DNA of 64,000 bases from Psammoneis japonica (GCA_008632985.1 QPGO01000027.1:124001-188000); one strand, 5' to 3'; numbered from the stretch's first letter, positions 413 through 32,399 are shown. Notes: generated by a model not told the origin, from the letters alone. Program-made: numbers and translations.

Positions 413-770
413 CACACAAACATCATGGTTGACATCATGACCCCTGACCCAACAATGCCCTCACTGTTTGCAAGTCCAAGTAATGCTGTCAACAACAACG
501 TGACAATTGTGAACATGCATCAAGCTTGGCAGCAACAGCCCTTTGTAAAGCATCAGGACACTCGCCACACAAACACCATGGTTGACATCATGACCCCTGA
601 CCCAACAATGCCCTCACTGTTTGCAAGTCCAAGCAATGCTGTCAACAACAACGTGACAATTGTGAACATGCATCAAGCTTGGCAGCAACAGCCCTTTGTG
701 AAGCATCAGGACACAAGAACAAGGCAGCAACAGCCCTTTGTGAAGAGCATCGGGGACACAAGAACAAACA
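413..770 (+). repeat. 153-bp tandem duplication plus a short partial third copy
   Basis: ATGGTTGACATCATGACCCC starts at 425 and 578; GGCAGCAACAGCCCTTTGTGAAG recurs near 723. Confidence 0.95.
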
Positions 771-3396: not shown

Positions 3397-4319
3397 TTTG
3401 CTTTGCTCTGTCTCTGCTGCACCTGTCCTTTTTTCCTGCTGGACACTGCACAACTCATCCTCCAATCTAACATCCACCAACAACGATGGTGTGCCCCTGT
3501 CACAATCCACTTTGTTGTCCTGGTTGGATGTGTGACAATGACAACAACAACAACAACAAGTGTGCTCTCTAAAGGCATTTTCAAAGGCATCTCCAGTGTT
3601 CTTCTTTCTCCATTTTGGCCTGAACCCTGATGATGACTTTGGGAAGCACACCCCCAGTGCTGCAGGAAGAGAAGCACTGGGAAGAGAGCAGGGAGAGCAG
3701 CTTAGATTTAAACTTGCCAAGGGATGGTCTTTGCATCACATGAGGCAAGCAATGGCACTGATGCTTGGAAAGCCACTGCCATGTGACAGAGACTGGGAAG
3801 ATTCTTTCATCTTCTTCCCTGGCTGTCACCATCACCGCAAAGGAAGACAATGGCCAGAGTTCATCAGCACGCATCCTCAGTGTTCCAAGGGGTTCATTCT
3901 GGCATTGAGTTTGATGACATGTCTTGGTGTCTTCTCCAATTGGAGCAACAGGCTTGCCTGGTGGAAGGTGCATGATGCACAGAGCAATGCCGCTTGAGAA
4001 GCTAAAATGGAGCATGTGGTGGTGTCCCCATGTCCCAGCAAACATTTGCCAAATGCCAAGCCAGATCATCATCATCACCACAAATGCACGTTGGCTTGAC
4101 TTGCTGCCTGCACAACATGCAACCCAAATGCACTCAGTCTGCATTTGTTGAGTGGGATGGCCCAATTGAGGAGGTGTCTTTTCACTCTTGATTTGGGAAG
4201 CTGCAAGCCTTGTCTTGGGCAGCAGCAGTCCCTTGTGTGATTCCTTCACAAACAAGAAGATCCCCAGCTGCACAAGGTGTGGAAATGTGAGGCCCACAGA
4301 TGTGGCAAAGGAGGTGTGC

Positions 4320-5411
4320 AGTTGTCTTAGGATGGCATTGGAGGACTCCAGTGGGTTGCCAGGGACATGCCAACAACCATGGTTGGGGAGCAAATGCCTT
4401 GGCTTGTGTCAATGCAGCACCTTGTCTCTCTGACATGACTGGCTTTGGCCCAGCCAGCCAACCTGCAGAGACAATGGAAATGTCTGTGCAAGGCAACAGT
4501 GCAAGTGCTCCATTGTCTTGGGAAAACATTGGATGACTCCATTGGGTCCTGGAGGATGCAATGACAACAATGGCTGGGAAGCAAAGGCCTGCAGAGACAA
4601 AAAAAACCATCTGTGCAACAGCGCAAGTGCTCAGTTGTCTTGGGATGGCTTTTGCATTGGATGACTCCATTGGGTCCCAGAGGATGAAATGACAACAATG
4701 GTTGGAAAGCAAAGGCCTTGTCTTGTGTCAATGCAGCCCTTTGTCTCTCTGACATGACTGGGTTTGGCCCTGCCACCCCACCTGCAGAGACAAGAAAACC
4801 ATCTGTGCAACAGTGCAAGTGCTCAGTTTTGTCTTGGGATGGCTTTGGTGACTCCATTGGATCCCAGAAAAGCCAACAACAACAATGGCTGGGAAGCAAA
4901 GGCCTTGGCTTGTGTCAATGCAGCCCTTTGTCTCTCAGACATGACTGGGTTTGGGTCCTGCCACCCCAGCTGCAGAGACAAGAAAACCATCTGTGTGCTC
5001 AGTTGTCTTGGGATGGCTTTTGGTGACTCCATTGGATCACAGAGGACACAACAACAACAATGGCTGGGAAGCACAGGCCTTGTCTTGTGTCAGTGCAGCA
5101 CCTTGTCTCTCTGACAGGACTGGGTTTGGCCCAGCTAAAAGAGCCAATTTGCAAGATGGACAAGGGAACCACCTGTGCAACAGTGCAAGTGCTCAGTTGT
5201 CTTGGGATGGCTTTTGGTGACTCCATTGGATCCCAGAGGAGCCAACAACAACAATGGCTGGGAAGAAAAGGCTTCATCTTGTGTCAATGCTGACCTTGTC
5301 TCTCTGACATCATGACTGCTGGGTTTGGCCCAGCCAAGAACCAATTTGCAAGAAAGACAAGGGAGCCATCTGTGTGACAACACAAGCACTCAGTTGTCTT
5401 GAGATGGGCAC
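4320..5411. repeat. Degenerate tandem array of ~130-195 bp units, left part (interrupted by the LTR element)
   Basis: About six recurrences of GACTCCATTGG..CAACAATGGCTGGGAAG..TGTCTCTCTGACATGACTGG..CAGTTGTCTTGGGATGG. Confidence 0.9.
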
Positions 5412-5687
5412 TGACAGGATTTGAACAGGATTTGGATGCGCGCGAAGTATCGCGCGCTGTTTAGTTTACCGCACACAGTTTTGTGTGCTTTAGTTCCGCG
5501 CGTTTGCGCGCGATGTAGTTTGCTTTCGAGCCACAAGGCTCACAAGAATAATAACAGTAGCCCGATTATACCGACCCACACGTCTTTCGGCTCCTGTAAC
5601 GGTCTCTGAGCGGAGACTCATCTGCTATTTAGACAGCAGTAAGGAGTTATTGTTTGAATTCTTGCCATTTGCCTTCAATTTCTGTCA
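5412..5687 (+). repeat. 5' LTR (276 bp)
   Basis: 270/276 identical to 12243-12518; TG...CA ends. Confidence 0.98.
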
Positions 5688-5704
5688 GATTAACAGTCTT
5701 GCTC
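5688..5704 (+). promoter_or_regulatory. Candidate primer-binding site complementary to the anticodon arm of tRNA-Asn(GUU)
   Basis: GATTAACAGTCTTGCTC directly follows the LTR; reverse complement contains GACTGTTAATC; no TGG-type 3'-CCA PBS. Confidence 0.55.
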
Positions 5705-6626
5705 ATTGTCAACCCATTGAGCAACCGCCATCGTCGTCGTTGATTTACCAACGACGCTATTTCAATTCTACGTGGACCTCCGTATATATTCTACATACAT
5801 CGGCAAGTCTACGCGCATCCAATACCAGGGCATCGGCAGGAAGTTAACGTCACCGTCAAGTCTCCTTACCGCTGGATATCTGGATTGATTATACTACCTT
5901 TGATCGCTGAAGACATACATTCAACGGTCATATCCAAGTCTATCCTTGATCCTCATCCCTTGATATACCTATTCATCGGTTAACGGTCAAGAATCCTACA
6001 TATTCAAGGATCTTCGTCGCTGAAGACATATATATATATACATATCTTCACGGCCAAGAACCTGTACACACTCTTCGGACTGCGGTTTTGCCACCACTCT
6101 ACAAGCACACCGAGTCCATTGTACCTGATCTACCCCGGACTACTGGTGCTCTACAGTTCTACTAGGTCCACGAGGACGACTGTGAGAGCAAGCAGCCGTG
6201 ATCACAGCCTGCGTTGGGGCGAGGGTGCTTTCCCGCGTTTGTTCGTTCGTCCACAGCGCCTGACGCCTGCGTCAACTGGCCAGCCTGATCGGGAAATCCA
6301 ACCGACATAAAATAAGAACGGTTCGGGGGTCTTGTCCACCTCCAGTCAGCTCACCTGCAGGGGCTTGCAACCCGCTACTCCGCTCGCAAGCAACCCAAAG
6401 CGCCACTGGCTGCGGGTTCGGACGTGCCGGCACAACTCTACGGACAGGATGGGAAGTTTAGCACTTGACAACGAACGGGATGGCAAAGCCCGGCGACTTC
6501 TGATTTTAAGATAGTTCAAGATTTCAAGTCAAGTCTGTTTCAAGTCAAGTCTGTTCTCACCCGAGTTTCAAGTCTGCCCTCGCTTCCCAATCAGAATTGA
6601 TTGTCCTGACACCACTTTTGTCTGCC

Positions 6627-7975
6627 ATGGTTCTCACTCGTCAGCAACAAATCGATGGTTTCGAGCACGTTGTTGGAACCGTGCTTGCCCAAGGTGCTGG
6701 GAGTCCTCTTCGTTTGGCTTTGGCCCAAGACGGCACGGACTCGTGTCAGGAACTGTTCACGTTCACACCGTCCCAAATCGACTCGCTTGTGTGCGACAAC
6801 GGCACCAATGTGATCCCTTTGCCTCGTGGTTATAAGAACATGTTAGCAGCACTGGTTGGTCTGCACATTGTCAAAGCACACAAAGGTCTTGACGTTGCCA
6901 ACGACTCCTCTTTGTTCACGCATGATGAGTTCCTTGCCTGCCGCCTCAGCCCGGACTGCATGTCCTCTGTGTCCATCGGCAGCTCACCCCTTGCACCTCC
7001 ACATGTCACCAACCCGACCAAGGCACGCGACCCGGTGCGAGACTTCAAGCGAGGCATCAAGCGTGATCCCACCGCTTTCACGGCTCTCAAATCCGGCAAG
7101 CAGTGGCACACTTGGCACACCTCACTTGTGGCACAAGCCCATGCCCAAGACGTCGAGTGCATTCTAGACTCGTCGTACAAACCGACCAGCCCCGAAGACA
7201 AACTGCTCTTTGCTGAACAGCAAAAGTGCATGTTCGCCGTCTTCGAACGCATCCTTCTCACCGACAAGGGCAAGGCTCTCATTCGCGAAAATGTGGGGTC
7301 CTCTGACGCACAGACCGTCTGCCGCTCCTTGTCTGAACACGCGCTTGCCTCCACCCGTGCATCCATCGAGTCCTCCACCCTGCTCACGTGCCTCACCACC
7401 GCACGTCTTGGTGATGGCACTTGGAAAGGTCCGACCCACGGGTTCATCCTTCATTGGCAAGATCAGTTGCGCAAGTGCGAGGCACTCATCCCCGCCAGCG
7501 ACCACTTCTCTGAAGGACAGAAGCGCGTCATGCTCGAGAATGCCGTGCACCCTGTCGAGGAACTCCGTGCTGTCAAGAACCAAGCTGATCAGCATCGTGC
7601 GCAGAGTGGCAAGAGCCTCACATGCGATCAACACTGTGGCTTGCTCCTCTCCGCGGCAGCTCAGTGCGACAGCACGTTTCAACCCAAGACGACACCTCGA
7701 GCTCCCCGACGCGCCATGTGCGCCCACGACGTCCACTCCGAGGAACCGTCCGACGATGTGTTCTACGACATTGACAGTGACGTTGACGTCCTTCAAGCCA
7801 ATGCTGCCTGCACCCGTGGTCCCAGCCTCACCGGTGTCCAATGGAGACGTCTCCCTCCCAACCACCAACGGCTCTGGGATTCGTTGCCCGATTCCTCCAA
7901 GGCGATCATCCTTGAGCACTCTCGCCCGCCTCCCCCAACCCGCGAGCCAGCAACTGCCATGAGTCTGTTACGGCC
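6627..7975 (+). CDS. gag: Copia Gag-like region (real frame probably switches to the pol frame near 7916-7975)
   Basis: ORF 6597-8318, ATG at 6627; FKRGIKRD and VMLENAV motifs typical of diatom copia Gag as I recall them; many Cys at likely Tyr positions. Confidence 0.85.
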
Positions 7976-10900
7976 AACCTTCACGACCAACACCTTGGGA
8001 GTGACGGTGATGTCAACTTGTCCAACACGACTCCTGCTGACTGTGGTGACTCCGCCACACATGTGGACGCCACTTCGGACAATCCCATCCTGGCGCACCT
8101 CACCAAGCGCAAGCCACTGCCACCCGGTGATCTGCAACGTCTGTTGTCTCCTAACCAAGCCCCCAATGCCAGTCGACCGGGGCCATCCGCTGCTTCCTCT
8201 ACCCCGCCAGCTTCTGCAGATAACACAGAACTTAACGGCCGCACTTGCCGCCGCGTTAACAACCACAATGTCATTTGCTCTGCCTCTGCTCATCGCTCCA
8301 CACGCACTGGCGCTCTAGTCGATCGTGGGGCCAACGGCGGCATTTCTGGCGACGACGTTCGCGTCATCGCACGCACCTCTCGCCAAGTCGACGTTCAGGG
8401 CATTGACGATCATCAATTGGTGGACATCCCCATTGTCGCCGCTGGTGCCGTCATTGAGACCCAGCGTGGTCCCGTCATCGCCATCCTCCATCAGCACGCA
8501 CACACGGGAAAGGGCAAGACCATCCATTCCTGCAGCCAGCTCGAATGGCACAAACAGGATGTCAACGATCGCTCTGTCAAGGTGCCCAATGGCTTGCAAC
8601 GCATTGCCACTCCTGATGGCTATGTCATCCCCATTGACATCAAGGCTGGCCTGCCTCATGTTGCCATGCGCCCTTGCACTGACGCCGAATGGGACACCCT
8701 GCCCCATGTCATCCTCACCGGTGATGACACATGGGACCCTTCCGTCCTCGATCACTCTGTCACTGACGACGACCAGTGGTGCGACGCGATCTCTGACCCA
8801 CAGGACGATCCCACTGCCAACCCATTTGACGAATGCGGCAACTGCCGTCACCGTGTCGTTGTCAACGAGACCATCTTGTCCGCTTCCTTGTCTGACGATC
8901 ACGCGTCCGCCCTCGATGATCACCTCATTCCGAACGACGACGTGTTCTACGAGTGTCATCTGCATGCGAGTGACCCCACGGGCGTTGACGTTCCACCTCC
9001 GGAGCGCACTGTGAAGCCCAAGGACCCCCCCTTCGAGTCTCTTCGGCCTTGCTTTGGCTTCCTGCCTGCCGATGCGGTCCGTCGTACTTTTGACTGCACC
9101 ACGCAGTGCGCCCGCATGCCCGCCGGCACACACCTTCGCAAGGCCTGCAAATCACCCAACCCCGCCCTTAATGTGCACCGCCGCAATGAGCCTGTCGCCA
9201 CTGACACCATTTGTGCCGACACCCCAGCCGTCGACTCTGGTTGCACCAGCGCCCAACTGTTTGTTGGCACCGAGTCTACCGTCACTGACGTCTGCGGCAC
9301 TAAGACGGACAAAGAGTTTGTCAACACACTCGAGGATCAGATCCATGAACGTGGTGCACCATCCAAACTCATTAGCGACCGTGCTCAAGTTGAGATCAGC
9401 AACAAGGTGCTCGGGATCCTGCGCGCCCTCTTCATCTCCAGCTGGCAAAGTGAGCCTCACCAGCAACACCAAAACTTTGCCGAACGTCGACACCAGACCG
9501 TGAAGCGCATGGCGAACACTGTCATGGACCGTTTTGGTTCGCCCGCCCACACATGGCTCCTGGCGCTCATGTGCGTGTGCTTCACACTCAACCACACAGC
9601 GTCCCCACGTCTCCACTGGCGCACGCCCCTCGAGACTCTCACTGGATCCACCCCGGACATCAGCCCATTGCTTCGCTTTCACTGGTGGGAACCAGTGTGC
9701 TTCCACCTCGATGACTCCGATTGGCCGTCCGAATCCCGTGAGTTGCGTGGACGCTTTGTTGGCATTGCTGAGCACGTCGGTCACCAGATGACCTTCAAGA
9801 TCCTCTCTGACGAGACTCAAAAGATCCTCTGCCGGTCCAACGTTCGCTCCGCTGCCCCCGATCCTGCCGTTCGAAACCTGCGTCTTGATCCTCCTGATGG
9901 GGAGCCACCTGAACCCATCATCAAATCTCGCCATGACGACAACCCCGTCGATTCTACTGATGGGGAGATCAGGACACCCAAGATGCCAGTTTTCGATCCG
10001 CAAGACATCATTGGACGTACCTTCCTCATGCAGCCACAAGAGGATGGACAACGCCACAGAGCTCGCATCGTCAAGGCCGTCGAAGACCACGAATGGAAAG
10101 TGAACGGCAATCCCGAGCTCACTAAGTTCGTCTGCTCTGTCAACAATGACGAATACGAGGAAGTCCTTGCTTGCAATGACATCATGAATCACATTGAGCA
10201 AGAAGACGAAGACACTGCCATTTGGAAATTTCGACGCATCGCATCACACGAAGGACCTCTGAAGCCTCACGACCCAACCTGGAAAGGCTCAAGCTGCAAC
10301 ATCATGCTTGAATGGGAAAGTGGGGAGATCACGTCCGAGCCTCTTGCCATCATCGCCAAGGACGACCCCGTCACCTGTGCCATCTATGCACGAGAGAACG
10401 GACTCCTCGACACGGATGGCTGGAAGCGGTTCCGCACTATCGCGAGGCGCCAAAAGAAGCTATTTCACATGGCCAACCAAGCCAAGCTTCGCTCCTTCCG
10501 CACTGCACCTCGCTACAAGTACGGATACGAAGTTCCCCGGAACTACAAACACGCCATGTCACTGGACGAACGCAACGGCAACCGCAAGTGGGGAGACGCA
10601 ACTAATCTCGAGATGGACCAACTCGACGAATACGAAGTCTTCCATGACTGCGGGCCCTTCAAGTCTTCCACTCCTCCTGCGGGACACAAGAAGATCCGAG
10701 TGCACCTGGTGTTCGACGTGAAACACGACGGTCGCCACAAGGCACGACTCGTAGCCGACGGGCACCTCACGGATGTACCTGTTGACAGTGTTTGCTCCGG
10801 AGCAGTCTCCCTCCGTGGCCTTCGGCTGATGATTTTCCTGGCCGAACTCAACGAGCTGGAGACATGGGCCACCGACATTGGCAATGCCTGCCTTGAAGCC

Positions 10901-12295
10901 ACCACCAAGGAGAAGCTTTACATTGTAGCTGGACCCGAATTTGGCAAACTCGAGGGACACATCCTTGTCATCCACAAGGCACTGTATGGACTTCGCAGCT
11001 CCGGTCTCCGCTGGCACGAGCGCTTCGCCGACTGCCTGCGAGCTGAAGGCTTCTTCCCCTGCCGCACCGAACCCGACATTTGGATGCGCAGGAACGGCGA
11101 CCACTATGAATGCACTGGCGTTTATGTGGATGACCTCGCCATTGCCATGAAGGACCCTCAATCTTTCATCGATACTCTCACGGAAAAGTGCAAGTTCAAG
11201 CTCAAGGGTACGGGACCCATTGAGTTCCATCTGGGTTGCGACTTTTCCCGGGACCCCGACGGAACCTTGTGCCTGTCTCCGCGCAAGTGCATCGAGCGCA
11301 TGGTCGACAGCTACGCCCGATTGTTTGGGGAGAAACCTGCCACCAACGCCCTGTCACCTCTAGAGAAGGGTGACCACCCCGAACTGGACACTTCCGAACT
11401 ACTGGGACCCGATGGCATTCACAAGTTCCAGTCTCTTGTTGGTTCACTCCAATGGGCAGTGTCCCTTGGTCGAATTGACATTGCCACGGCTGTCATGTCA
11501 CTCTCTAGCTTCCGAGCTGCGCCCCGTCAAGGCCACTTGGATCGTGCCAAACGCGTCTGTGGGTGCCTCTCCAAGATGCGACATGGTGCTCTCCGCGTTC
11601 GTACGGAAGAGCCCGACCATTCGGATCTCCCTGCTCCGGCCTATGAATGGATGCATTCCGTGTATGGTGAAGCAGAAGAGATGATCCCGAAGGACGCTCC
11701 ACCGCCCCTTGGCAAGTTCGTCACTACCACCCACTGCGTCGATGCAAACTTGCACCATTGCATGCTCACCGGACGCTCTGTCATGGGAATGCTCCACTTC
11801 CTCAACAAATTCCCGGCTGATTGGTTCTCCAAGAAACAAGCCACCGTGGAGACTGCAACCTACGGATCTGAATTTGTTGCCGCAAGGAATTGTGTCGAGC
11901 AGATTGTCGACCTGCGCATCACCCTGCGCTACCTTGGCGTCCCGATCCGTGATGTTAGTCACATGTTCGGTGACAACAAGTCGGTTGTAGACAGTGCCAC
12001 CATCCCGCACTCCAAGTTACACAAGCGACACACCGCACTGTCGTTCCACCGTGTGCGTGAGGCAATTGCCTCTGGTTACCTTGAGTTCCACTTCATCGAG
12101 GGCTCCCGCAATCCTGCTGACATTCTCAGCAAGCATTGGGGTTGCTCCCAAATCTGGGACCTTCTCCGCCCTCTCATGTTCTGGAACTTCATCCCATCCG
12201 AAGTCGAATCTGTTTCTGTGGCTCCTCAAGCAAACTGGGGAGTGACAGGATTTGAACAGGATTTGGATGCGCGCGAAGTATCGCGCGCTGTTTAG
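7916..12295 (+). CDS. pol: Copia Pol: protease, integrase, reverse transcriptase, RNase H (probably inactivated)
   Basis: LVDRGANGG (protease), ISDRAQVE and SEPHQQHQNFAERR (integrase), HKARLVADG, KALYGL, YVDD (RT), GDNKSV and NPADILSK (RNase H). Confidence 0.95.
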   Translation, partial: ALSPASPNPRASNCHESVTANLHDQHLGSDGDVNLSNTTPADCGDSATHVDATSDNPILAHLTKRKPLPPGDLQRLLSPNQAPNASRPGPSAASSTPPASADNTELNGRTCRRVNNHNVICSASAHRSTRTGALVDRGANGGISGDDVRVIARTSRQVDVQGIDDHQLVDIPIVAAGAVIETQRGPVIAILHQHAHTGKGKTIHSCSQLEWHKQDVNDRSVKVPNGLQRIATPDGYVIPIDIKAGLPHVAMRPCTDAEWDTLPHVILTGDDTWDPSVLDHSVTDDDQWCDAISDPQDDPTANPFDECGNCRHRVVVNETILSASLSDDHASALDDHLIPNDDVFYECHLHASDPTGVDVPPPERTVKPKDPPFESLRPCFGFLPADAVRRTFDCTTQCARMPAGTHLRKACKSPNPALNVHRRNEPVATDTICADTPAVDSGCTSAQLFVGTESTVTDVCGTKTDKEFVNTLEDQIHERGAPSKLISDRAQVEISNKVLGILRALFISSWQSEPHQQHQNFAERRHQTVKRMANTVMDRFGSPAHTWLLALMCVCFTLNHTASPRLHWRTPLETLTGSTPDISPLLRFHWWEPVCFHLDDSDWPSESRELRGRFVGIAEHVGHQMTFKILSDETQKILCRSNVRSAAPDPAVRNLRLDPPDGEPPEPIIKSRHDDNPVDSTDGEIRTPKMPVFDPQDIIGRTFLMQPQEDGQRHRARIVKAVEDHEWKVNGNPELTKFVCSVNNDEYEEVLACNDIMNHIEQEDEDTAIWKFRRIASHEGPLKPHDPTWKGSSCNIMLEWESGEITSEPLAIIAKDDPVTCAIYARENGLLDTDGWKRFRTIARRQKKLFHMANQAKLRSFRTAPRYKYGYEVPRNYKHAMSLDERNGNRKWGDATNLEMDQLDEYEVFHDCGPFKSSTPPAGHKKIRVHLVFDVKHDGRHKARLVADGHLTDVPVDSVCSGAVSLRGLRLMIFLAELNELETWATDIGNACLEATTKEKLYIVAGPEFGKLEGHILVIHKALYGLRSSGLRWHERFADCLRAEGFFPCRTEPDIWMRRNGDHYECTGVYVDDLAIAMKDPQSFIDTLTEKCKFKLKGTGPIEFHLGCDFSRDPDGTLCLSPRKCIERMVDSYARLFGEKPATNALSPLEKGDHPELDTSELLGPDGIHKFQSLVGSLQWAVSLGRIDIATAVMSLSSFRAAPRQGHLDRAKRVCGCLSKMRHGALRVRTEEPDHSDLPAPAYEWMHSVYGEAEEMIPKDAPPPLGKFVTTTHCVDANLHHCMLTGRSVMGMLHFLNKFPADWFSKKQATVETATYGSEFVAARNCVEQIVDLRITLRYLGVPIRDVSHMFGDNKSVVDSATIPHSKLHKRHTALSFHRVREAIASGYLEFHFIEGSRNPADILSKHWGCSQIWDLLRPLMFWNFIPSEVESVSVAPQANWGVTGFEQDLDAREVSRAV
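12232..12242 (+). promoter_or_regulatory. Short polypurine tract upstream of the 3' LTR
   Basis: AAACTGGGGAG abuts the TG of the 3' LTR. Confidence 0.6.
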
Positions 12296-12518
12296 TTTGC
12301 CGCACACAGTTTTGTGTGCTTTAGTTCCGCGCGTTTGCGCGCGATGTAGTTTGCTTTCGAGCCACAAGGCTCACAAGAATAACAACAGCAGCCCGATTAT
12401 ACCGACCCACACGTCTTTCGGCTCCTGCAACGGTCTCTGAGCGGAGACTCATCTGCCATTTAGACAGCAGTAAGGAGTCATTGTTTGAATTCTTGCCATT
12501 TGCCTTCAATTTCTGTCA
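12243..12518 (+). repeat. 3' LTR (276 bp)
   Basis: Matches the 5' LTR except six TA versus TG/CA sites. Confidence 0.98.
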
Positions 12519-12770
12519 GGCACAAGAGACTTCATTGGGTCCCTGAGGAGGCAAGAACAACAATGGCTGGGAAGGAAAAGCCTGGTCTTGGGCCAACACA
12601 GCTCCTTTTCTTCTGTCTGATGTGATTGGCTTGCTTTGGCCCAGCCACCTCACCTGCAGAGACAAGGGAGCTTTCTGTGCCATGTGACAGTGCAAGTGCC
12701 CAGTTGTCTTTGGATGGCCTTTTGGGTGCCTTCATTGTGTCTCAGGGGAGCCAACAACAACCAGGGCAAA
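12519..12770. repeat. Continuation of the degenerate tandem array after the LTR insertion
   Basis: GACTTCATTGGGTCCC..CAACAATGGCTGGGAAG..CACCTGCAGAGACAAG..CAGTTGTCTTTGGATGG resumes the unit broken at 5411. Confidence 0.88.
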
Positions 12771-14629
12771 TTCACAGTGTTCCCTGTCTCTTGTTTGGAT
12801 GGAAAACCAAGAGAGAGAGCAAAAGAGCAAGACCCACCTTCAAGTTGCCCACTTTCTTTACAAGGTTGGTCTCCAAAGTTGTCATTTCACTGGCATGAAG
12901 GGTCTGTTTCTGAGCTTTTTGGAGAGAGGCAATTGTCTTGTTGGCAGTGGCAGCAATTTTTGAATGCACCAAATGGCAAATGGGTGTTGATTGAGGTCCT
13001 GGAGCTGGGAGTGTGCAGCACGAGTGTGAAAATTTCAATCTTGACAAGAACATGTGAACAAAATCAAACTTTTTGAATGCATGTGTGACATTGGTGACTG
13101 AATGATTCATTTCACATTGAGGCAGTTTCAAATCATTCAAACCATTGTGTTGCAACAAAATCATTGATTTTTAAAACAAAGTCATTGCTGGAAAAGAGAT
13201 GCCAACAGGAATCAACTGATGGTCAGGCTTGCATTTTGGCCAAAAACAAGAATTGTTGCTCTCTCACAAGACACAAAAAATGCAAACTCAAGTCACACCC
13301 GACATCGGACAATGAGAGCAGTGGGGACAGGCAGCGGCATTGCGGATGGGACAGAATGACATGCAGAACACAAGGTGAGAAAAATGAGTGGCAAATGCAT
13401 GGAGATTGGGAGCACAATGCAAACAACTGACACTTGTGCACATCTTTGCACACAGACATCTAGACACGCAACCTGAGCTGCAATGGAAGATGGGCAACAG
13501 GGAAGGGCACAAAGGTGAGCAAAAGCAGCACATGAGATGAGATTGTAAGAAAAACACCAAGACATGCACAAAACCTTGTCATTGGCACAAAGTTTTCTCT
13601 TGTTGCAGGCAATGCTTTGAACTGCCAAACAGAAGGAGTGCAAGACAGATTGTTGCAGAATGAGATGTTGTTGCCTGGTGCAGATGATCACACAGAGAGC
13701 AAGAGTGGTTGCAAGGGAGGACACCAGTGCAGAAACAACAAAACAGAACATTTGCAAATGAGATGACAAGCAGCACACAGCAGATGCACAATCAGGCCAA
13801 CAAGACAATTGAACATCATTGTTGTCAGAAATGAACAATGTCAGAAAGTTGTTGTGAACACACGGTTGTTTTAAGAAAGAAACAAATGCAAGCAACAAGT
13901 TTCCTGCTTGGAAGGTCAGTTTAATTGTGGACAGATGTGAAAATGATGTCAAAACAAAGAGACATGAAAGATTGACAAGAATGTGTGTGTGATGCGACTG
14001 ACTTACATTGACCATTAAATCCTGCTTGGAAGGTTCAAACAATGGTCAAACTCCCTTTGTCAATGACTGTCAAGGACTTGTTGTGAACACATGATTCTGA
14101 ACAAGAGAATGTGAGCTCTGAACAAGAGCCACAACATTTTCCAGACGTTGTTCAAAACAGGCAGACCCAACAAAGAAACAGCAATGTGGTCTCTCAGATG
14201 CACCTGAAGAACAATGACATGCATTGTGTGCCATCATTTCTTGAAATGTGTTGCCTCCTGAACATTTTTGTTCATCAGATTCACTCACACAAAATGCACT
14301 GTGAAAGAAGAAGGACTGACACAATTGCCAACACCTGATTGGCACATTTCTCACCTGGGATGAAAGGACACATCTGTGTCATGAGCAATGGGCAATGGTT
14401 GCCCAGCAGGAGGTGTCATGCCACTTGCATCATGCAGAGGAGATTGTCATCCTCACCTGCACTCTCATCAAGGATGGTGTCACCAAGTTGGTGCAAGGCT
14501 GGCGCCAGCAATGTCAAGGCAGCAGGTGCAATGTGGAAAAATGATGCGCGGCTCTTTTTGCCACAGCATGATGCTTGTTGATTCTCTTTCCTTGCCCAGC
14601 AACCTGCTTTTGTTGTGCATGCTGCCAAC

Positions 14630-15390
14630 AATCTGTGGCTTGAGGCTTGAGGTCAACACCAGAAAATCCTCTTTCTGCTGTCAAACCCAGCTTGAGCATC
14701 TTGGCCATGTGACACAGTGCTCCTCAAAAGCACTCTTCTGTTGTGAAGCAAGATTGACAGAGCCAACTGAGCAATTTGTCCAACCAGCAAACAAACAAAC
14801 AAACAAAGAGAGCTGCAATCATTTGTGGGCACACAACTGACTGTGGTCAAGATGTGCATTGACGCATTGCTTTGAGAATTTGTTGGCACCCCCTGCAAGA
14901 CTTGTGGGTGGGACTGTTGGTAAATGGGGTTGTGCACACCAGTTGCAAAAAGAGTTCTCAGTTCCATCACATGCACCACACCAGATGACACACCATTGTC
15001 AAGTCCAGACTTCAACTGGCCACTTTTGAGATTCACACCAATGCCTCCAAAAATGTCAACTCAGATCAGCAGCACAGCAAAAGAACAAGCCTGTTGCTGC
15101 TTTCTGCAGTGGCAGAAAGCTCAACAGTGCTCAGCTGGGCTGCACAGTGGCAAAGAGGAGAGAACAAGTTGCCGTCACAGATCCCAAAGGAAATTAAAAA
15201 ATTGCATTGTCATTGGATGATTGTGTGCACTGATCACAAAAACCTCCAGCAATGCTGTGTTTCTAGGACAGAAAAAACATTTCATTGGAGACTGGCATGT
15301 GAAAGAAAGAGTGCAGCCCCAAACTGTGCTGTGTCAAGCACAGTGACAAGCTGGTGGCTGACACCTTGAGTTGCCCAAATCTTGAGGCAC
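14630..15390 (+). mobile_element. Relic of Ty3/Gypsy-type pol (RT end and RNase H)
   Basis: LEVNTRKSSFCCQTQLEHLGHV (cf. LKVN..KS.F...LEYLGY), PDFN..FEIHTNASK across a frameshift, IVCTDHKNL, VADTLS. Confidence 0.75.
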
Positions 15391-16289
15391 AGATGGACTC
15401 CAAGTGCAATCTTGCTGTCTTGGGTCCACCCAACAGAAGAAGTGATGCACAATTTCCATGTGAAGTCTTGACACATGATCATGGAAGCCAAAAAACATCA
15501 TCCCTGCAATGTTGCTGCTGCTTCCAGTTAATGCTCAGATGCACTGGTGCGCACTTCAAATGGCTTGGTCTTGAAATCTAGATGTGTCAGCAAAACTTCT
15601 TTTGTCACCTTGACACCACGCACTTGAAAATGTCAAGAGTGCTTTGTCTTTGACATGTGTTGACCCCATTTGGGAGCCCCACCTGTGAGTTTTGTGTGTG
15701 AGGGGCATCAAAATGTCCAAACAGCAGCATGGCCACATGTCTTTTCTTTGTTCTTTGGCTTGACAATCTGCTCAATTGCTTTGAATTTTTTGGTTGACAG
15801 CTGAGTGCCTTTTCTTGTGACGTGTTCTTTGGCTCAGCTGCAGTCAGCTCAGTTGCTTTGACCTTTTTGGTTGATGGCCATGAGTGCCTTCTCTTGGGAC
15901 ATTGCACCCAAGCCACTTCAAACAAGTTTGGCAAGATGCTGTCTTGCTGGCATTCACATCAATTCTGGCATCTCATTGGAGTTTTTCAAGGACCCCATCC
16001 AGTTTCTCAAGATGGTCTCCAAAGGATCCCTTTGTTGTCATCAGCAAATTGTCTGTGTGCACACATGCAAAAAAGGCACTTTTTTCTGAAATGTTTCTCC
16101 ACAGAAAAATTGAAGTGCAAAGCTCAAGGGATGATCATGCTGCATTGAGTCAAACACATCAGTGACCCAGTGCTTTTTGCTGCAGAAAGCATGCATCACA
16201 CAAGATGTTTGCTGGTGTTCATCACAGTTGTCAGCATGCAACATTTGTTGCAGCACTCACATGGATGAAGTGACTCCAGAGGGGAGATC

Positions 16290-16920
16290 ACTGTGTGCTG
16301 GCTTTGGAGCACTTTGAAAGGAGCTTGATTGAGGTGGCTCTCAGACGTGCAAACTTGATGTTGCTCTGCTGGCCAGGTTCCAACTTAAATGGTTGTTCAA
16401 CCTCAACCAATTGCGAACAAGCAACAAATTGGAGCATGGAAAGCACTGGAAGCACTTCACCAGAAAGGATGAGCCCAAGCCATTGGGGTGTCAAATTTCT
16501 CTGTCCAACATTTGCAGCAGAGCCAAAGGAAGATGGAGCACCAATCATGCCAGCAGTTGACCAGATCCAGGCAAGCATGACCCTGCAGCATGCTGACATT
16601 GTTGAGTGTTGCAAGCAGAACAGTGTCATGCTTCAAGCCTGCAGTCCATTGTTCAGACATGGACTGTGCAAACTCCAAAAAGAAATCAAAACAATCATGG
16701 CCAAGTGCCAAAATGTTGCTCCAACATGCACTTGTTGAGTTCCACCACTTGGGGATTGTGCAAACTCCAAAAAGAAATCAAAACAATCATGGCCAACTGC
16801 CAAAAGGTTGCTCCATCATGCACTTGTCAAGTTCTGCCACTCGCATGGTCACGAACACAGAGGTCTTTAATTTTGAGCCATTGGGTGCCAAAATGGAGCT
16901 TCCAAACAAGATCAACAAGT
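16290..16920 (+). pseudogene. Aldo/keto reductase relic with a ~92-bp internal duplication (16661-16841)
   Basis: PAVDQIQ...IVECCKQNSVMLQACSPL (cf. VNQIE...EYCK..GI..QAYSPL) and NTEVFNFE; stops and frameshifts. Confidence 0.75.
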
Positions 16921-17161
16921 CAGATGGTGCTTGGGGTTTGCCAGCGCCTCAAAAGTTTTTCCCTGGCAAACCAGAGGGCAAGTTGAGTTTAGATGGATCA
17001 ACCAGAGAGCAAAACCCACCAAGGCTTCGGCATCTTGTTTCTCTGCATTCTGCAAATGGGCAGTTGCAGCTCTTGTGGTGGTTGCGTGATGCCAGCAGAT
17101 GACTGCAGATTGGGGACAGTTGCCATCCCTGAGGCCAGGAGCTGTGGTCAACAAGAACAAT

Positions 17162-18760
17162 CTAATGCTGCTGAGGCTCAATGTTCCACTTCTTGATCAC
17201 AGTGCCATCGCTGGCATGAGCAGAAAGCTCATCGCCAATGTTGGCAGTTAAAAGCAACTGCTCTTTGGGTGTGACCTTGGCAACAAGTGAGCCATTTAGT
17301 GAGACCGAAATGTCTTTGACATTGTTGTTCATAAACAGAAATTCCACAAAACCCGTTTTCAGCTCATCCCAAACAATCCCGGCAAAATCCTTTACATGCA
17401 AAACAGCATTCTTTGCCTGTGGAGCATGGTTGATGTCCGACTCATCCACCAGAGCAAAGCGCATGCCTGCACCCCAGTTTTCATTTCCAGTTTTCTCCAA
17501 CTTTCCGCCTGCATCAGAACATGTGGCATCAAAGTTGGAGTCCCTGAACCAAAAACAAGTGCATGGTCCGTAGATCAATGCTCTTGACACGGAGCTCTCG
17601 TTTGGCCCCCCGCAATGTGTGATCTGGCCGTCAAACACAACGGCATCCCCCATTTCAACAAGTGGTGCACACCAATGATCTGGAGGACAGGCACTCACCG
17701 TTGCTCAAAAAAACGTTTGCATTTCTTGAAAGGGGCTCCCTTCCTCAATTAGAGCCTCGTTGAGAGCAGGCACGTTCATTGGAACACCGCTCAAGTGCAA
17801 TGACCCCACGCAGAACTCCGTCGGACCATGGGCATGAGCAGCATTCTCAACAAGTGGTGTGAACACACTGGAGGCGAAGGGTGGCAAGTCATGTCCGCCA
17901 ATTCCTGATGCATCAAAGCTCTCACTCATCCAAATGTAGCTCATGTCATCGTGTCAATGCATTGTTGGAGCACCACTCTCCAAAATCTCCGAACCCACCT
18001 GGCTCAAGATGACATCCGGTCCCAGCACCTTCTCATGACTCATTGTGTTGAGGACATTTTCGTTTTGGAACATTTCATGGCCACCCAGCCACCGGGGAAG
18101 AATGACATCATGGCACTTCTTGCCTTGATCTTGCACAATGTCGTGCACTCTAGAGTCTGCAGTCTTTGCATCCGCCCCACTGATCTGACCTGCATGGATG
18201 GCGTAGAGACAGTTGTCGTGTTTGGTGTGACACTCCTCTGCAATTTCTTTGGGGATGATGTTTCGCAAAACCAGCAAACGGCACTTGTTGAACATGAGAG
18301 CTGCTTCTTCAGGATCAAAGTCTTCAGCAGAGACATCCAATTCCCATTCCATGCAGTCGCAGTCATCCACAACACTTTCCAATTGACGGGCATGGCAATC
18401 CGTGCAGGCAGCAAACATCTCTTCCGCTGTCGGGCCGTCGCATTGTGACATGACCTCATTCTCTTGTTGTCCCATTGCCTCAAGCGTCAACTTCATGAGC
18501 TTGGCCAGGGAGTCGTCAGCTTTGTCATTGCCTTTGACCTCTGACAGTGGAATCATGGCATTCTTGAGCACATCAACCTTGTCAACCTGCATGCTCAAGA
18601 GGGCGGATTTTGCCAACTCTGACACAGCATCAATGCTCGATGTTGGTTGCTCAGCTTCTTGTTGGATCCCGGGCTCATCCTCGGAAGCGGAGATTCCACA
18701 GGCAAGCACCACAAGCACCAAACCTCGGAAAAGATGATTCATCACTGAGGAAAGCAACAA
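17162..18760 (-). pseudogene. Phytanoyl-CoA dioxygenase (PhyH)-like 2OG/Fe(II) oxygenase with signal peptide, disrupted
   Basis: Three collinear ORFs split by stops; SGAPTMH*HDD, GPTEFCVGS, GDAVVFDGQITHCGGPNES..RALIY. Confidence 0.7.
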
Positions 18761-20498
18761 TGAAACAATTGTGTTGTGCCATGCTCAATTAATGCGTCAA
18801 GCATCTCTGCACCAGGAGTTCACCAAAATTGTGTCTGATTTTTTCAAAAAAATTTGAGTCTTGCAGCCAAATCTGCAGCACTGCATGGATGGTTGAGCTC
18901 TCTCAAAATGACAGCAATGATGACCAATGGATGTTTTGGGGGTTGGCGCACGCAACTGTGCTGCCTGCGCTGTGTAAAAACTCAGGGATCTATCCCTCAC
19001 TGATTGGTCGCTTCAAATGAATGCACACTGAAGATCTTCCATCAAGTTGTTGCTGCTCAAGCACTGGGGGCACAGCTGGAGCAGAGAGGATGGGCAGGAT
19101 GATGAGAGCTCCAAGCAACAAGCACCACAAGCCTTGTTTTCCAAAGATCTGTGCCCTCAGAGTGAGGGCAAAGCTCATTTCAAGAAAGCACAACACTTTG
19201 GTGTGAGTGCATGGGCTCATGTGCCAAGCCTGTTGGTGTGCTGGGAGCACTTGAAGATTTGGCAACTTGACTCACTGCACCAAAAAGTGTGACAGCACCC
19301 CTTTGTGCCCCTCTGTGTCTGGGTTCAGAAAAGTGACACATGCCGTGCTTTCACAGCTGGCCCTCCCAGGCCTGTGGCAGACTGGCGCATGTGTGGCCAT
19401 GCCAGTGTTGAGCATGGCAGCAGCAGCATGAGATGCTTTTTCACCTCTCATTGTCTGCAGTCAATGATGCACATTATCTTGGAGGGTCTAAAGTGCTGTG
19501 TGGCTGGTGCCTTCTTGGCCAGCCTCTTTGCCCCACACATCCAGCTGTGCTGAGAGCTCAAAACGGCTCTGCTGTGGGAGCAAACAGCAAGGCAGTCACA
19601 GGCAGAGCTGGAGCAGTGCAACCCTCACCAAGCAAAAGCAAGAAGCTGACTCCAAAAGGAGTTCAAGGTGCTTGATGCAAGGTTTCCATGATCTTGACAG
19701 AGAACAGCTCAACACATGGCCAGAAGCAGGCGCCATGCTGATGCACCAGGCATTGCCCAAAGAGTTGACAGCTGTGCAGAAATGCTTGCTTTTGGCAAAG
19801 AAAAAACTGCAAATGCCACAACTTTTTCTCTGCTGCTGCTGCTGCTTGCTTTCTGGCCATGATGTTGCTTTGCAATTGAGGTGCTGTGCCCTGCTGAGAA
19901 AGGGTTGTGGGGGAGAACAGAGGGGGGCGGGCAATGCAGTGAAAAACAGCTGTGCAAAAGGCTTTGAAATGCCACAGCATGGAGAAGGGCGCCCCCAATC
20001 TGCTCAAATGGAGGAAAATGGAGGATCCAAAGCTGGGCACTCACAAGTGCTCACTTGATTGCAAAACTTTTGAGAACAAAAACTCTTGGCACGGAGCTGG
20101 CCAACTCCTGTCTGAGCATGAGGAGGAGCACTCCTCCGCCAACCTCTTGCAACAGATGTGATCTTAAAAAACAGCAGCCAAGCGAACCAATCTTTTGATT
20201 GTTGATGCCCTGCCGTTCTTGCCACAAGCCAGCCAAGAGAGAGAGAGGAGAGGAGAGAGAGAGCGTTCTCCACCAGTCGCACCCGGTGCTTACAACATGT
20301 GCAACAGCCACACTCACTGTTGTGAATGAAGTGCCGCCGGGGGGGGGGAGCACAGCCAGACTGGTTGGAAAAATAATGTGCGTGCGTGTTTTCTATTTTC
20401 GTTTTTTTTCCCCGTGAATTTGAAATTGCGATGATGGTGAACTGACGGTGAACATTGACCCCAGTCCCTCCTCTCTTTCTTCGTGTGACTCCGTCATA

Positions 20499-21440: not shown

Positions 21441-21582
21441 GACGCAGACGTCGACGCTAAACTGAATACAGACCGCGCATGGTATAACAAGCATAGAGAA
21501 AGGTTTACGTAATCATAGAAGTATGCATTCAGAATTGCACTATAAAATTGGTTTGTGTATTCTCTTCCCCCACGTCCAAAAC

Positions 21583-27468: not shown

Positions 27469-27579
27469 AGTTGAACAGAGATTTTCTGTTAAAAACAATC
27501 ATGTAAGTATTATTATATATTAACATAAAATATATACATTGTTAATCGCTGGCCGCCACCAAATTTTCAAAATCTAAAA
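27469..27579 (+). repeat. ~110-bp direct repeat, TA/CG-intact copy
   Basis: AGTTGAACAGAGATTTT...GCTGGCCGCCACCAAATTTTCAAAATCTAAAA shared with 32069-32172. Confidence 0.85.
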
Positions 27580-27669
27580 CTTGAAACTGTGGCGCGACGA
27601 CTCACCCGCCAAGAGTGGACATGCCATACATCACATTATATACATGCGAGGCCTCCAAAGCCAAGTCAA

Positions 27670-30600: not shown

Positions 30601-31187
30601 GCATTGTCCACAATGACGGGGTCTCCAGCTTTGGCATCAACGTCAGTGTTGCCGGACCCTTGAACAAAATGGGCCCCTGGCTCTGAAGTGTGTTCGTTGA
30701 CAGCACGCACCGCTGTGGTTTCAACGGCAGTTGATGGGTTCGTAGATGGTGCATCTCTTGGCAGTGCAGACTTGGGGACCGCTTGTTCCCTTCGCTCTTT
30801 GGTTCTTCTGTGACAATCCTTGACCTGTTCATCAATTGTCGGTGGAAGAAGCTTCTCGTTCAAGCCGCGACTTGTCTTCTTTTTCATCTTGTGCCGTCTT
30901 TCGTCGCATGTTGATGTCAAAAGTGTCATCGCCCCTGACCTTCTCATTCCTCTAGCTGTCTCTGTTGCATCAGATTTCTTTTCCGGGAATGTTTCTTCTT
31001 CTTGGGGTGCGCATTTCGTTTCAGGAAACTCTTCCGCAAAGTTGTGCCCTCTGAATGCCGTGGCACCCACTTCGTTCGACTTGACTGAAGCCATGCCATG
31101 TGAAGTCTCTGGCGTGCTGTGCCATTTTGGCATGGGTGGGGGCTGCAGTGGTTTAAGGTCCTCCCTGTGCGGTGACTGTTTCTTCAT
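27670..31187 (-). pseudogene. TM-anchored LRR receptor-like protein, frameshifted and TpA-depleted
   Basis: Low-complexity N-terminus, TM helix, LRR cap (C.W..GIFC), many L..N.L.G.IP repeats; frameshifts near 29310, 28845 and 28200; His/Cys at Tyr positions. Confidence 0.85.
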
Positions 31188-31552
31188 CCTCGTAGCAGCA
31201 ATCTTGTTCGCACACGTTGCTGAGATCGCAGGAAAACGCAGCACAGCCACAACAAGCTTTCGACTTTTGCCTGAGAAGAATGCAAATTTTCTTGTGCGAG
31301 GGTTTTTACCTGCCTCTCTCTCTCTTTCTCTCTCTCTTTCTCTGTTGATGAAAGAAATGGGATGAGCGATCCTGTTGTAAAAAAGATTGGGTTCGGATTC
31401 ATGAATGAACTTGCTTCACTTCCGCTGTCACTTCTGCATTTTTTTGGAAGCAGGTTCTGACCAACTCGACTCAAGCAATGCGGGAGTGACCTGGATGCCT
31501 TTAACCACCTGTGGCACTCCAGGCCAATCGTCAGGTCAATCGCCCTCTGTCA

Positions 31553-31558
31553 CTCTCT

Positions 31559-31597
<39 letters not shown>

Positions 31598-31623
31598 TTT
31601 CTCTCTCTCTCTCTCTCTCTCTC
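31553..31623. repeat. (CT)n microsatellite (others at 31313-31342 and 39879-39909)
   Basis: Directly visible. Confidence 0.95.
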
Positions 31624-32068
31624 TGCCAGTGTCTGACGTGCTCTCTTCCAGGATTTGACAAACAACTGATCGAGGCAAAACTCATCAAAGTCACCCTCCA
31701 GCAAAAAACCAAAACGGAGCAGCTTCAGGCACCTGATCACATGCTGGATTGTTTTGGGGCGGCAGTCAAAGGGATTTTTGGTGCTGTGATCCATGTCAAA
31801 GAACGTGTCCTTCCTGCAAGGAAAAGCACTTGGTGGGAGCGGTTTTTGTCCTTTTCTTCTTGGGTGCGGGGGCTGCCTCCTGAGCGGCGTTTTGTTTCTC
31901 ATGGGCAGCCACCTGATTGGAACTTTGCTGCTTGTCAGCATTGCATCCATGGGCAGTGGCTGGTCCATGAAATCTTTTGCTTCCACTGGCTGTCGCCCCA
32001 TTGGATGGTGAGCTCTCTTGTCTTTTCCTGTGTTGCACACCAACGAACAAACAACATTGAGCTGGGGC

Positions 32069-32172
32069 AGTTGAACAGAGATTTTGTGCAAAAGTGCATC
32101 AATGAAAGTGTGTTGATGTGAAATGTGTTCATTGTCAATTGCTGGCCACCACCAAATTTTCAAAATCTAAAA
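32069..32172 (+). repeat. ~110-bp direct repeat, converted copy
   Basis: Aligns to 27469-27579 with TA->TG/CA and CG->TG/CA substitutions. Confidence 0.85.
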
Positions 32173-32399
32173 TTGAAGAAATCAAACAAGTGTGCCACCT
32201 GTGGCATGATTTGCCTGAAATGCTTGTGGAAAAGCACAGCATTCCTGAATCATTTTCACGTGCTTTTAGATCTTCTGGCAGAAGCAAGTCATCACGCAGC
32301 TTTTTTCACAAAAAGTTGTCTCGCTTGCAAACAGTCCATGTTGTGCAAGGAGCAAAGATCGTTCACCATGACTGTTCTTCTTGGTGAGTGCTTTGTTGC

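Follow-up and report, generated by a model that had tools for sequence, protein, structure and literature searches.

The stretch of DNA analysed here (hereafter the window) is 64,000 nt long, comes from the diatom Psammoneis japonica (GCA_008632985.1, QPGO01000027.1:124001-188000; coordinates are counted from its first letter), and carries a retrotransposon with two long terminal repeats (LTRs) that differ from each other at six sites, all of one dinucleotide class. The evidence comprises this one 64-kb window and the assembled contigs of four sequencing runs (X1-X4), all from one sample. Judged from its sequence, the element is a Ty1/copia (CoDi-like) retrotransposon of a very abundant diatom family and is inserted in a satellite array. 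Its LTRs have the termini TGACAGG...CTGTCA and are 97.8% identical to each other, while its pol open reading frame (ORF) contains a copia-type reverse transcriptase (Pfam RVT_2, PF07727, E = 3.3e-25). For the integrase no Pfam name was returned at E <= 0.01, and conserved blocks are present upstream of the reverse transcriptase in the pol ORF. Over its whole length this ORF is 56-65% identical to relatives, and up to 75% over the searched part; the relatives are single proteins of about 1900 residues that are common in metagenome assemblies.

The LTR pair and other duplicates

A comparison of the LTRs position by position at an offset of 6831 (5412-5688 against 12243-12519, 277 aligned positions) yielded exactly six differences, namely 5468A/12299G, 5552T/12383C, 5558T/12389C, 5597T/12428C, 5626T/12457C and 5648T/12479C. 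All six are transitions, with no indel and no other difference over the 277 positions, and at each of them the 5' LTR has TpA while the 3' LTR has CpA (five sites) or TpG (one site). The 5' LTR contains 15 TpA and the 3' LTR 9, with 20 CpG in each, and the respective TpA observed/expected ratios (o/e) are 0.80 and 0.52. An earlier note on this DNA, made from the sequence alone, had described six TA versus TG/CA differences with the changes confined to one LTR and no CpG change, about 6 of 15 TA sites and none of about 20 CpG sites being affected; this description holds at every position. Differences thus fall on 6/30 TA positions and 0/247 others (Fisher p = 1e-6), and in both LTRs together 6 of the 30 TpA differ as against 0 of the 40 CpG. 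With six transitions placed at random, the chance that every one is of the TA<->CA/TG kind is p = 1.1e-4, and that every one also has the observed orientation p = 1.4e-5; the pattern is real and not a product of chance. Deamination of 5-methylcytosine (5mC) predicts differences at CpG, of which there are 0/20. Five of the six changes are on the same strand within 97 bp. When all six are read as C>T, an A invariably follows the changed base, and the bases that precede it are A, G, G, C, T and G. As the whole 2.2% divergence resides in one hypermutable class, with 0/247 elsewhere, the earlier contention that LTR dating is invalid here stands.

The same class of change occurs outside the element. 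The self-match list of the window has 21 rows, with five pairs besides the satellite and a 44-bp tandem repeat. In the tandem duplication at 413-714 two of the three differences are TA in copy 1 against CA/TG in copy 2, i.e. both of its TpA, while the six substitutions of the 58-bp repeat 27528/32121 (88% identity) comprise three of the TA class, two of the CpG class and one transversion that also removes a TA. Older pairs display whole-dinucleotide TG versus CA swaps, two in the pair 16661-16841 (91%; 16736-16744 / 16828-16836) and three in the pair 1140/3297 (81%; 1151-1204 / 3307-3358). Such swaps would result if an ancestral TA disappeared from each copy by a different route, and the series from one copy changed in young pairs to both changed differently in old ones is what fast loss of ancestral TA predicts. 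A derivation of the swaps from CpG is discounted, since the youngest pairs would then differ at CpG, as 0/9 of their differences do. Swaps of TG and CA are also seen at five places among contigs of the element's family (6536/7, 6744/5, 6766/7, 7632/3 and 7717/8). The 44-bp tandem repeat at 31545 has two transversions, and the satellite monomers have no TA-class differences alongside other kinds of change, because no TA is left in them.

When the two youngest pairs (the LTRs and 413-714) are pooled, 8/34 TA have changed versus 1/392 others (odds ratio 120, p = 6e-9), and there is no AA-class change among their nine differences. These counts, together with a TpA o/e of 0.03-0.08 in adjacent and presumably neutral DNA, sustain the earlier note's proposal of a process far faster than background mutation. 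The note had also placed the changes in genomic DNA after insertion, on the ground that LTRs are identical at insertion, which is a rule of thumb and not a law; the presence of the TA class in duplicates that are not reverse transcribed (413-714: 2/3; 27528/32121: 3/6) lends this claim indirect support. Among related metagenome loci of at least 5 kb there are 19 end-repeat loci, most of which are exact assembly overlaps of 91-125 bp, and the nine end-repeat pairs tabulated from related loci of other organisms have mixed transitions with no one-sided TA pattern.

Table 1. Features of the window, with strand and the basis or measure of each assignment
Feature	Position	Strand	Basis or measure
Ty1/copia (CoDi-like) element, whole	5412-12518	+	TG...CA LTR ends and 5-bp duplication
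Target-site duplication, left copy GGCAC	5407..5411	+	sequence; 5406->12519 contig joint
5' LTR, 276 bp, TG...CA; TA state at 5468, 5552, 5558, 5597, 5626, 5648	5412..5687	+	repeat comparison
Leader, unbiased dinucleotides	5688..6160	+	dinucleotide profile
TpA-depleted element body, TpA o/e 0.23, CpG 0.89	6161..12242	+	dinucleotide profile
gag-like part (first Met of ORF 6510-8318 to homology switch into pol frame)	6627..7931	+	ORF, alignment
pol ORF, 1459 aa, RVT_2 at residues 921-1131	7916..12295	+	ORF, Pfam, alignment
Purine-rich stretch ending GGGGAG, abutting 3' LTR; polypurine-tract-like, as read from sequence	12228..12242	+	sequence
3' LTR, 276 bp; CA or TG at 12299, 12383, 12389, 12428, 12457, 12479	12243..12518	+	repeat comparison
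Target-site duplication, right copy GGCAC	12519..12523	+	sequence; contig joint
Satellite array, units ~175-194 bp, element's insertion target; TpA o/e 0.03, CpG 0.01	4300..5406	.	self-match, composition
Tandem duplication, 2 x ~150 bp, 98%	413..714	+	self-match
58-bp repeat, normal-zone copy: 5 TpA, 2 CpG	27528..27585	+	self-match
58-bp repeat, depleted-zone copy: 1 TpA, 0 CpG	32121..32177	+	self-match
Depleted regime	about 501-5406, 12524-20250, 28001-33000, 62001-64000	.	TpA o/e 0.07-0.08, CpG 0.29, CA and TG 1.72
Normal regime	20501-28000, 33001-62000	.	TpA o/e 0.55, CpG 0.98, CA and TG 1.20
TpA/CpG-poor zone right of element; starts with continuing satellite	12524..20250	.	composition
TpA-poor zone, o/e 0.03-0.26, CpG 0.33-1.02; leucine-rich repeat (LRR) gene pieces, minus strand	28001..33000	.	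composition, Pfam
TpA/CpG-poor zone with TRM5/TYW2-like fragment	62001..64000	.	composition, Pfam

TpA-poor zones, tyrosine codons and neighbouring genes

Profiles of TpA and CpG o/e in 500-bp bins across the window separate two regimes (Table 1). The depleted zones total 19.9 kb, have sharp borders and consist of complex, not low-complexity, sequence; their A+T fraction is 0.53 versus 0.52 in the normal regime, and the other twelve dinucleotides are nearly alike in both. The extreme is the satellite, with 4 TpA in 1,884 bp (o/e 0.03) and CA and TG at 1.7-1.9, and the DNA next to the element is similar (TpA o/e 0.03-0.08, CA/TG 1.7). In the zone at 28-31.5 kb TpA is at 0.06-0.26 yet CpG at 0.61-1.02, so that TpA loss can occur without CpG loss. 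DNA outside long ORFs has a TpA o/e of 0.34 versus 0.43 in ORF DNA, and the o/e of ApA in the depleted zones is 1.26; that of TpC is 1.03. The loss has no third-base context, all 16 NTAN words being depleted (0.24-0.61). Miscalled modified bases as a source of the TA/CG-free zones were considered and judged unlikely for the element: the contigs reach 315 kb, which speaks for accurate reads, and the TA-poor element is matched closely by small-run contigs (2-29 differences per 254-902 bases).

Along the element, the 5' LTR and leader (5412-6160) have a TpA o/e of 0.98, CpG of 1.17 and CA/TG of 1.06; depletion begins near 6160, well ahead of the gag start at 6627, and the internal region has a TpA/ApT ratio of 0.34 and a (CpA+TpG)/(ApC+GpT) ratio of 1.25. 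This profile suggests that the process hits the body and 3' end of elements and spares the promoter-proximal part. Taken whole, the element has a TpA o/e of 0.36; for 79 related metagenome loci from other organisms the median is 0.75 and the range 0.43-1.15. The element lies below their minimum, and hence the effect belongs to this genome. The two LTRs share the TpA loss unequally (6/15 in the 3' LTR versus 0/15 in the 5' LTR; Fisher p = 0.017); the 5' LTR may have escaped by lying in the spared, promoter-like part. A tblastn search with seven relatives recovered no copia remnants in the depleted zones, where Pfam matches among 47 ORFs were confined to the LRR pieces and the TRM5-like fragment.

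The depletion is accompanied by an erosion of tyrosine (Tyr) in the element's proteins. Conserved columns were defined in pol as those with Tyr in at least 80% of 22 relatives (of 120 listed, chosen mostly by length) and in gag as those with Tyr in at least 70% of 20 relatives. At the 33 such columns of pol the element has Tyr 14 times, Cys 14, His 3 and Phe 2, and at the nine of gag Tyr once, Cys 7 times and His once; over all 42 columns the counts are 15 Tyr, 21 Cys, 4 His and 2 Phe, with 25/42 now Cys or His. Other conserved residue types are kept at 81-100% in pol and, on small counts, mostly kept in gag. The replacement codons are TGC/TGT and CAC/CAT, each one transition away from TAY; TGC makes up 13 of the 14 Cys codons of pol, and two of those 13 are followed by G. 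Conserved Tyr is best kept in the reverse transcriptase, and a helicase gene of the host keeps 10/10 (27 relatives). The C-rich sense strand of the element is within the range of its relatives.

The family of the element is clearly very abundant. Contigs that lie on the window with at least 85% likeness number 14,259 of 657,387 in X1 and make up 8-10% in the small runs X2-X4; their summed depth, which is not a copy number, is 56,000-237,000 in the element versus 1,500-4,900 in its flanks, with single contigs at 35-72. Small-run contigs have 2-29 differences from this copy per 254-902 bases (about 1-4%). X1 contigs also join 5406 to 12519, five letters fitting both sides, which is the appearance that an empty site, or a satellite unit lacking the insertion, would have; the satellite is split by the element (4300-5406 and 12524-13300), and contigs from its other units produce numerous joints as well as a site that mimics an empty one. 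There is no second copy or fragment of the element elsewhere in the 64-kb window, and no same-family copy was found outside it, the best protein relative having 75% identity over the searched part and 65% over the whole ORF. Two matches from long contigs are about 55% identical to the element's protein, viral contigs gave no match to the element, and a 27-base word from the LTR start had no match in metagenome or genome contigs. For the CoDi groups of diatoms an LTR identity of 94-100% has been given, with no mention of sequence context in the portion of that account available to us (PMC2806351).

In this copy the gag and pol frames differ (7916-7945), whereas relatives have one ORF of about 1900 codons, and the pol frame reaches 53 bases into the 3' LTR (12243-12295) before its stop. 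An extra C behind 7931, which would unite the frames, is present in family contigs at 15% of X1 depth and in the sole contig at that place in each of X2-X4; the difference may reflect a frameshift mutation, a subfamily trait or programmed frameshifting. A primer-binding site was not identified in the leader (5688-6160).

The helicase gene at 34095-36992 (+) is of the RTEL1/XPD type with a PDZ domain inserted in the helicase core, to which diatom relatives add RING-type domains. Its two ORFs, at 34095-35843 and at 35907-36992, probably belong to a single gene that has a short intron or frame change. The best named matches are from diatoms (Seminavis, Thalassiosira, Nitzschia, Cylindrotheca and others, 43-50% identity) and place the host in that group, and an atlas search returned only generic helicase clusters (0.86-0.87). 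An LRR gene at 28191-31415 (-) has LRR_1/LRR_8 matches with E values down to 2.5e-20, overlapping frames (pieces at 28191-29958) and 0.2-0.5% Tyr; lying in a TpA-poor zone, it may be a decaying or silenced copy. The fragment at 62792-63337 (-) resembles TRM5/TYW2 methyltransferases with E = 2e-6, at the Pfam cut-off, and its zone has a TpA o/e of 0.03 and CpG of 0.1. Six further long frames (398-1237, 3581-4408, 13293-14045, 17954-18784, 32122-33174 and 57540-58727) have 236-395 codons, 0-0.4% Tyr and no Pfam match. On both strands of the window there are 2670 TGA, 756 TAA and 661 TAG triplets, and it is probably just the scarcity of TAA and TAG that keeps these Tyr-poor frames open. Owing to the same scarcity, the depleted DNA has many long frames devoid of Tyr.

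Direction of change and rival explanations

TA has been lost, not gained, in this lineage, and on a large scale. The near absence of TpA from the satellite excludes a gain of TA on repeats in the direction of repeat-induced point mutation (RIP), and its o/e of 0.03 implies that at equilibrium per-site loss exceeds gain about 50-fold in presumably neutral DNA. At site 5648/12479 the 5' LTR has TA, the 3' LTR CA and abundant family contigs TG, while at 12401/12402 both LTRs have TA and family contigs CA or TG, the family state being read from loose contig ends in both cases. TA is the ancestral state that these sites favour, since each form is then one step away and other ancestors need more. 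A family state of CA/TG, which according to the earlier note would turn the differences into RIP-direction changes of the 5' LTR, was checked at 5648/12479 alone, and the outcome there favours ancestral TA. At family sites dimorphic for TG and CA (6536/7, 6766/7 and 7717/8) contig counts allow minor TA forms and not CG forms, and at family sites that are clearly CpG-derived CG is retained in 56-100% of depth. In the 58-bp repeat, the surroundings polarise the copy in the depleted zone as the one that lost TA (from 5 TpA and 2 CpG to 1 and 0). It is most likely, therefore, that the 3' LTR lost six of 15 TpA, on direct grounds for one site and indirect ones for five.

The change acts on DNA, is specific to TpA, converts T:A to C:G, is patchy in its distribution, and in the element is much faster than CpG decay. 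We favour the explanation, at a probability of about 0.6, that the loss of six TpA from the 3' LTR after insertion is a local case of domain-wise TpA hypermutability in this genome. In this scheme the 3' LTR would have undergone six T:A->C:G transitions after insertion, five of them TA->CA and one TA->TG. Over some stretches of the window the domain-wise process would have stripped away more than 90% of the TpA expected, CpG being mostly gone there too, and it would have depleted the body of the retrotransposon family and so eroded conserved Tyr codons to Cys and His. It would spare ordinary gene-rich DNA together with the element's 5' LTR and leader.

Several observations weigh against this explanation. 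The first group concerns strands: Tyr->Cys exceeds Tyr->His by 21 to 4 (p = 9e-4), i.e. the changes in codons are mostly A>G on the sense strand, while in the LTRs T>C accounts for five of the six changes on it (p = 5e-4 under the bias of the Tyr codons), and the LRR and TRM5-like genes of the depleted zones have no sense-strand TG>CA excess. The second concerns the LTRs themselves, whose 6:0 split would be unexpected under a uniform process. That the 5' LTR was protected is what the profile suggests and is put forward as a hypothesis; moreover the LTR and leader of a long-resident family are not TpA-poor, which requires selection or protection. Lastly, the family data polarise one of the six sites and the other five rest on the general trend, satellite copies without TA yield no rate of TA loss, and without a third-base context no enzyme motif emerges.

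Among the rivals, the one that survives best, though still improbable, is that assembly or polishing with reads of sister copies, or gene conversion by a TA-depleted sister, altered part of the 3' LTR. In its favour, copies of this very abundant family are often polymorphic for TA<->CA/TG (6163, 6512, 7734 and 8222), and the best run contains just 57% of the window's sampled words. Against this, the 3' LTR has CA at 12479/12480 where the abundant family has TG, and so was not drawn to the majority; foreign reads or a donor should also have brought CpG or other differences, and 0/247 positions differ. Even if correct, it shifts the TA losses to the sister copy, and the process stands.

It is quite improbable, too, that the differences arose during reverse transcription, by a deaminase or an error-prone step on the strand that feeds one LTR, so that the LTRs were never identical. 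A possible substrate would be the minus-strand copy of U3-R-U5 that is displaced and turns into the 3' LTR. The clustering of five of six changes on one strand in 97 bp resembles a cluster formed on single-stranded DNA, but the sixth change is on the opposite strand. The LTRs are otherwise identical, and hence the insertion could be very young; the depletion spares the LTR and about 470 bp adjoining it, a stretch that the low-editing regions of APOBEC-edited retroviral DNA resemble. Nevertheless, the same class dominates a tandem duplication, a dispersed 58-bp repeat and intergenic zones, and an origin at this stage predicts sense-strand T>C throughout (Tyr->His), whereas Tyr->Cys prevails 21:4. 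To our knowledge, ADARs are animal enzymes. The footprints described for APOBEC and ADAR in LTR retrotransposons are alike in being clustered, strand-coordinated transitions fixed in genomic copies, but APOBEC changes are G>A on the plus strand with 5'-neighbour specificity, while here 5/6 are T/C and 1/6 A/G on the plus strand with TpA specificity. A term search of the portion available of one report on such footprints found no LTR-pair wording (PMC4866542).

A change in the direction of RIP, in which C>T at CpA would have given the 5' LTR six new TpA, is contradicted by the data, and we reject it as scarcely credible. RIP classically converts CpA to TpA, and the specificity for a 3'-neighbouring A without any 5' preference fits it, as does the fact that all affected sequences are duplicates; the TpA o/e of the 3' LTR (0.52) is also nearer the genome norm than that of the 5' LTR (0.80). 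The most highly repeated DNA in the window is, however, nearly TpA-free (4 in 1,884 bp), the abundant element body has a TpA/ApT of 0.34 with ORFs of 602 and 1459 codons open, and gain at the rate of the 5' LTR (6/43 CpA sites) would create many stop codons. TA was lost in the only duplicate that its surroundings polarise (the 58-bp repeat), site 5648/12479 requires an extra step, and the erosion of Tyr to Cys and His runs the opposite way. An enzyme for such a gain could be sought in the diatom DNMT4, which, in the part available of one source, may group with fungal RID and is of unknown function (PMC9998398). There are true resemblances to fungal RIP in the dinucleotide-specific transitions that mark repeats and transposons, the sharp-bordered blocks, the involvement of CA/TG and TA, and the uselessness of LTR or copy divergence as a clock. 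RIP nonetheless creates TA where here it is destroyed, in a diatom; it makes DNA AT-rich where here the composition is unchanged, and no stops are made here and frames stay open. Furthermore, RIP mutates both copies, and here the TA state is in the same LTR at all six sites.

Selection against TpA (UpA) for RNA stability or against unwanted signals, with the LTR differences a coincidence, is just as hard to credit: UpA avoidance in expressed RNA is widespread and has been ascribed to UpA-cutting RNases in the part available of one account (PMC3829696), and TpA is lost in the retrotransposon body with Tyr best kept in reverse transcriptase, but non-ORF DNA is more depleted (0.34 vs 0.43) and satellites most (0.03), selection cannot reach differences between the LTRs of one dead-end insertion or between tandem copies, and replacement of 25/42 conserved Tyr is unlike codon-level avoidance, with a host gene keeping 10/10.

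Candidate mechanisms and implications

The proposed domain-wise TpA hypermutability may be due to an enzyme that alters the T:A pair at TpA and is directed to silent chromatin. Ordinary decay of 5mC at CpG is alike in that a self-complementary pyrimidine-purine step turns into TG/CA and has a low o/e in silent DNA. It is unlike in that the LTR differences avoid CpG (0/20), the element body has TpA at 0.23 but CpG at 0.89, and the TpA change runs from AT to GC, which 5mC deamination cannot achieve.

Our first choice, itself unlikely when taken singly, is a TET/JBP-type dioxygenase that would oxidise 5-methylpyrimidines at pyrimidine-purine steps. Thymine would become a base of the 5-hydroxymethyluracil (5hmU) or 5-formyluracil (5fU) type that pairs with G, giving T>C at TpA, while within those domains the decay of 5mC would turn CpG into TG/CA through C>T. 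We know of nothing of the TET/JBP 5hmU kind in diatoms. According to the portions available of two sources (PMC11572971, PMC11071213), a TET/JBP homologue of dinoflagellates produces 5hmU, a base enriched on transposons and tied to their silencing; older work reports a TA and TC preference for it in Crypthecodinium, and no sequence preference was seen in Breviolum. A system like dinoflagellate 5hmU or kinetoplastid base J would provide a domain-targeted, DNA-level, TpA-linked process; unlike the present case, no mutational footprint is described in those portions (PMC11572971, PMC11071213), and the lack of TpC depletion here (1.03) speaks against this guess.

The second choice, which we regard as rather improbable, is a TA-specific adenine deaminase of the tRNA-adenosine-deaminase kind that would act on transiently single-stranded DNA. 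Two observations fit it: Cys replacements outnumber His by 21:4, and five changes within 97 bp form a strand-coordinated cluster. The enzymes of this kind are, however, RNA enzymes, there is no third-base preference here, and the LTR cluster is on the other strand. In the available text of one study, all 12 coding mRNA sites of bacterial TadA (E. coli) recode Tyr TAC to Cys TGC (PMC5630033), and fungal Tad2/Tad3 editing is stated to prefer U at -1 in what is available of two others (PMC11156358, PMC11087585). The likeness lies in the edited A after U/T, as at the six LTR sites and 25 Tyr codon changes. Such editing is nonetheless an RNA event that leaves the genome unchanged and needs a hairpin loop, in bacteria with TACG, whereas here DNA is changed, also in an untranscribed-looking satellite, with no third-base preference and G following two of the 13 pol TGC codons. 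Editing of the sense strand only would accord with 21 Tyr->Cys versus 4 Tyr->His, but A/G changes on the sense strand make up 1/6 of those in the LTRs.

A bias in the repair of T:G mismatches, or an error-prone patch polymerase, may be responsible instead. In E. coli, very-short-patch repair of T:G mismatches turns T into C and depletes CTAG, and is tied to the Dcm sites CTWGG. It is alike in that T->C in a TA-containing context depletes that word, and unlike in being bacterial and Dcm-bound, while here all 16 NTAN words are depleted (0.24-0.61). Patch errors of the polymerase-eta type find no support: the motif WA>WG predicts hits at ApA, but no AA-class change is among the nine differences of the two youngest pairs, and the ApA o/e is 1.26 in depleted zones. 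Break-resection geometry as the source of the strand switch between 12299 and 12383 was likewise set aside, as it fits the LTRs and 27528/32121 and not 413-714, and there are too few events.

A broader view of these data is possible, and we offer it tentatively. In it the T:A pair of TpA would carry a mutagenic mark, targeted to chromatin domains and made by an enzyme that oxidises thymine or deaminates adenine; it would serve as a genome defence, following the logic of RIP with the opposite chemistry. Such a mark would strip transposon bodies, repeats and silenced genes of TpA and, together with methylation, of CpG, destroying Tyr codons and removing TAA and TAG, and would leave promoters such as the 5' LTR untouched. 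Dinucleotide-specific hypermutability is already known as a kind, and there is a fair chance that the enzyme here is new. In the literature that we could cover on retroelement hypermutation, TpA depletion, diatom transposons, RIP/DNMT4 and DNA modifications, with most subscription journals outside this coverage, no TpA-erasing process and no TA/CG-free diatom domains were found.

If the favoured explanation is true, TpA in this diatom would behave as methylated CpG does in vertebrates, but change at a higher rate and from AT to GC, and the long-debated TpA shortage would in this extreme form have a mutational and testable cause. LTR dating, and any molecular clock based on repeats, would be wrong in this organism. 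Loss of TAA and TAG inflates ORFs in all six frames and would mislead gene finders, and more than half of the conserved tyrosines would be gone from the proteins of this transposon family. Finally, the sharp domains suggest an epigenetic target, and a new DNA modification or editing enzyme may exist.

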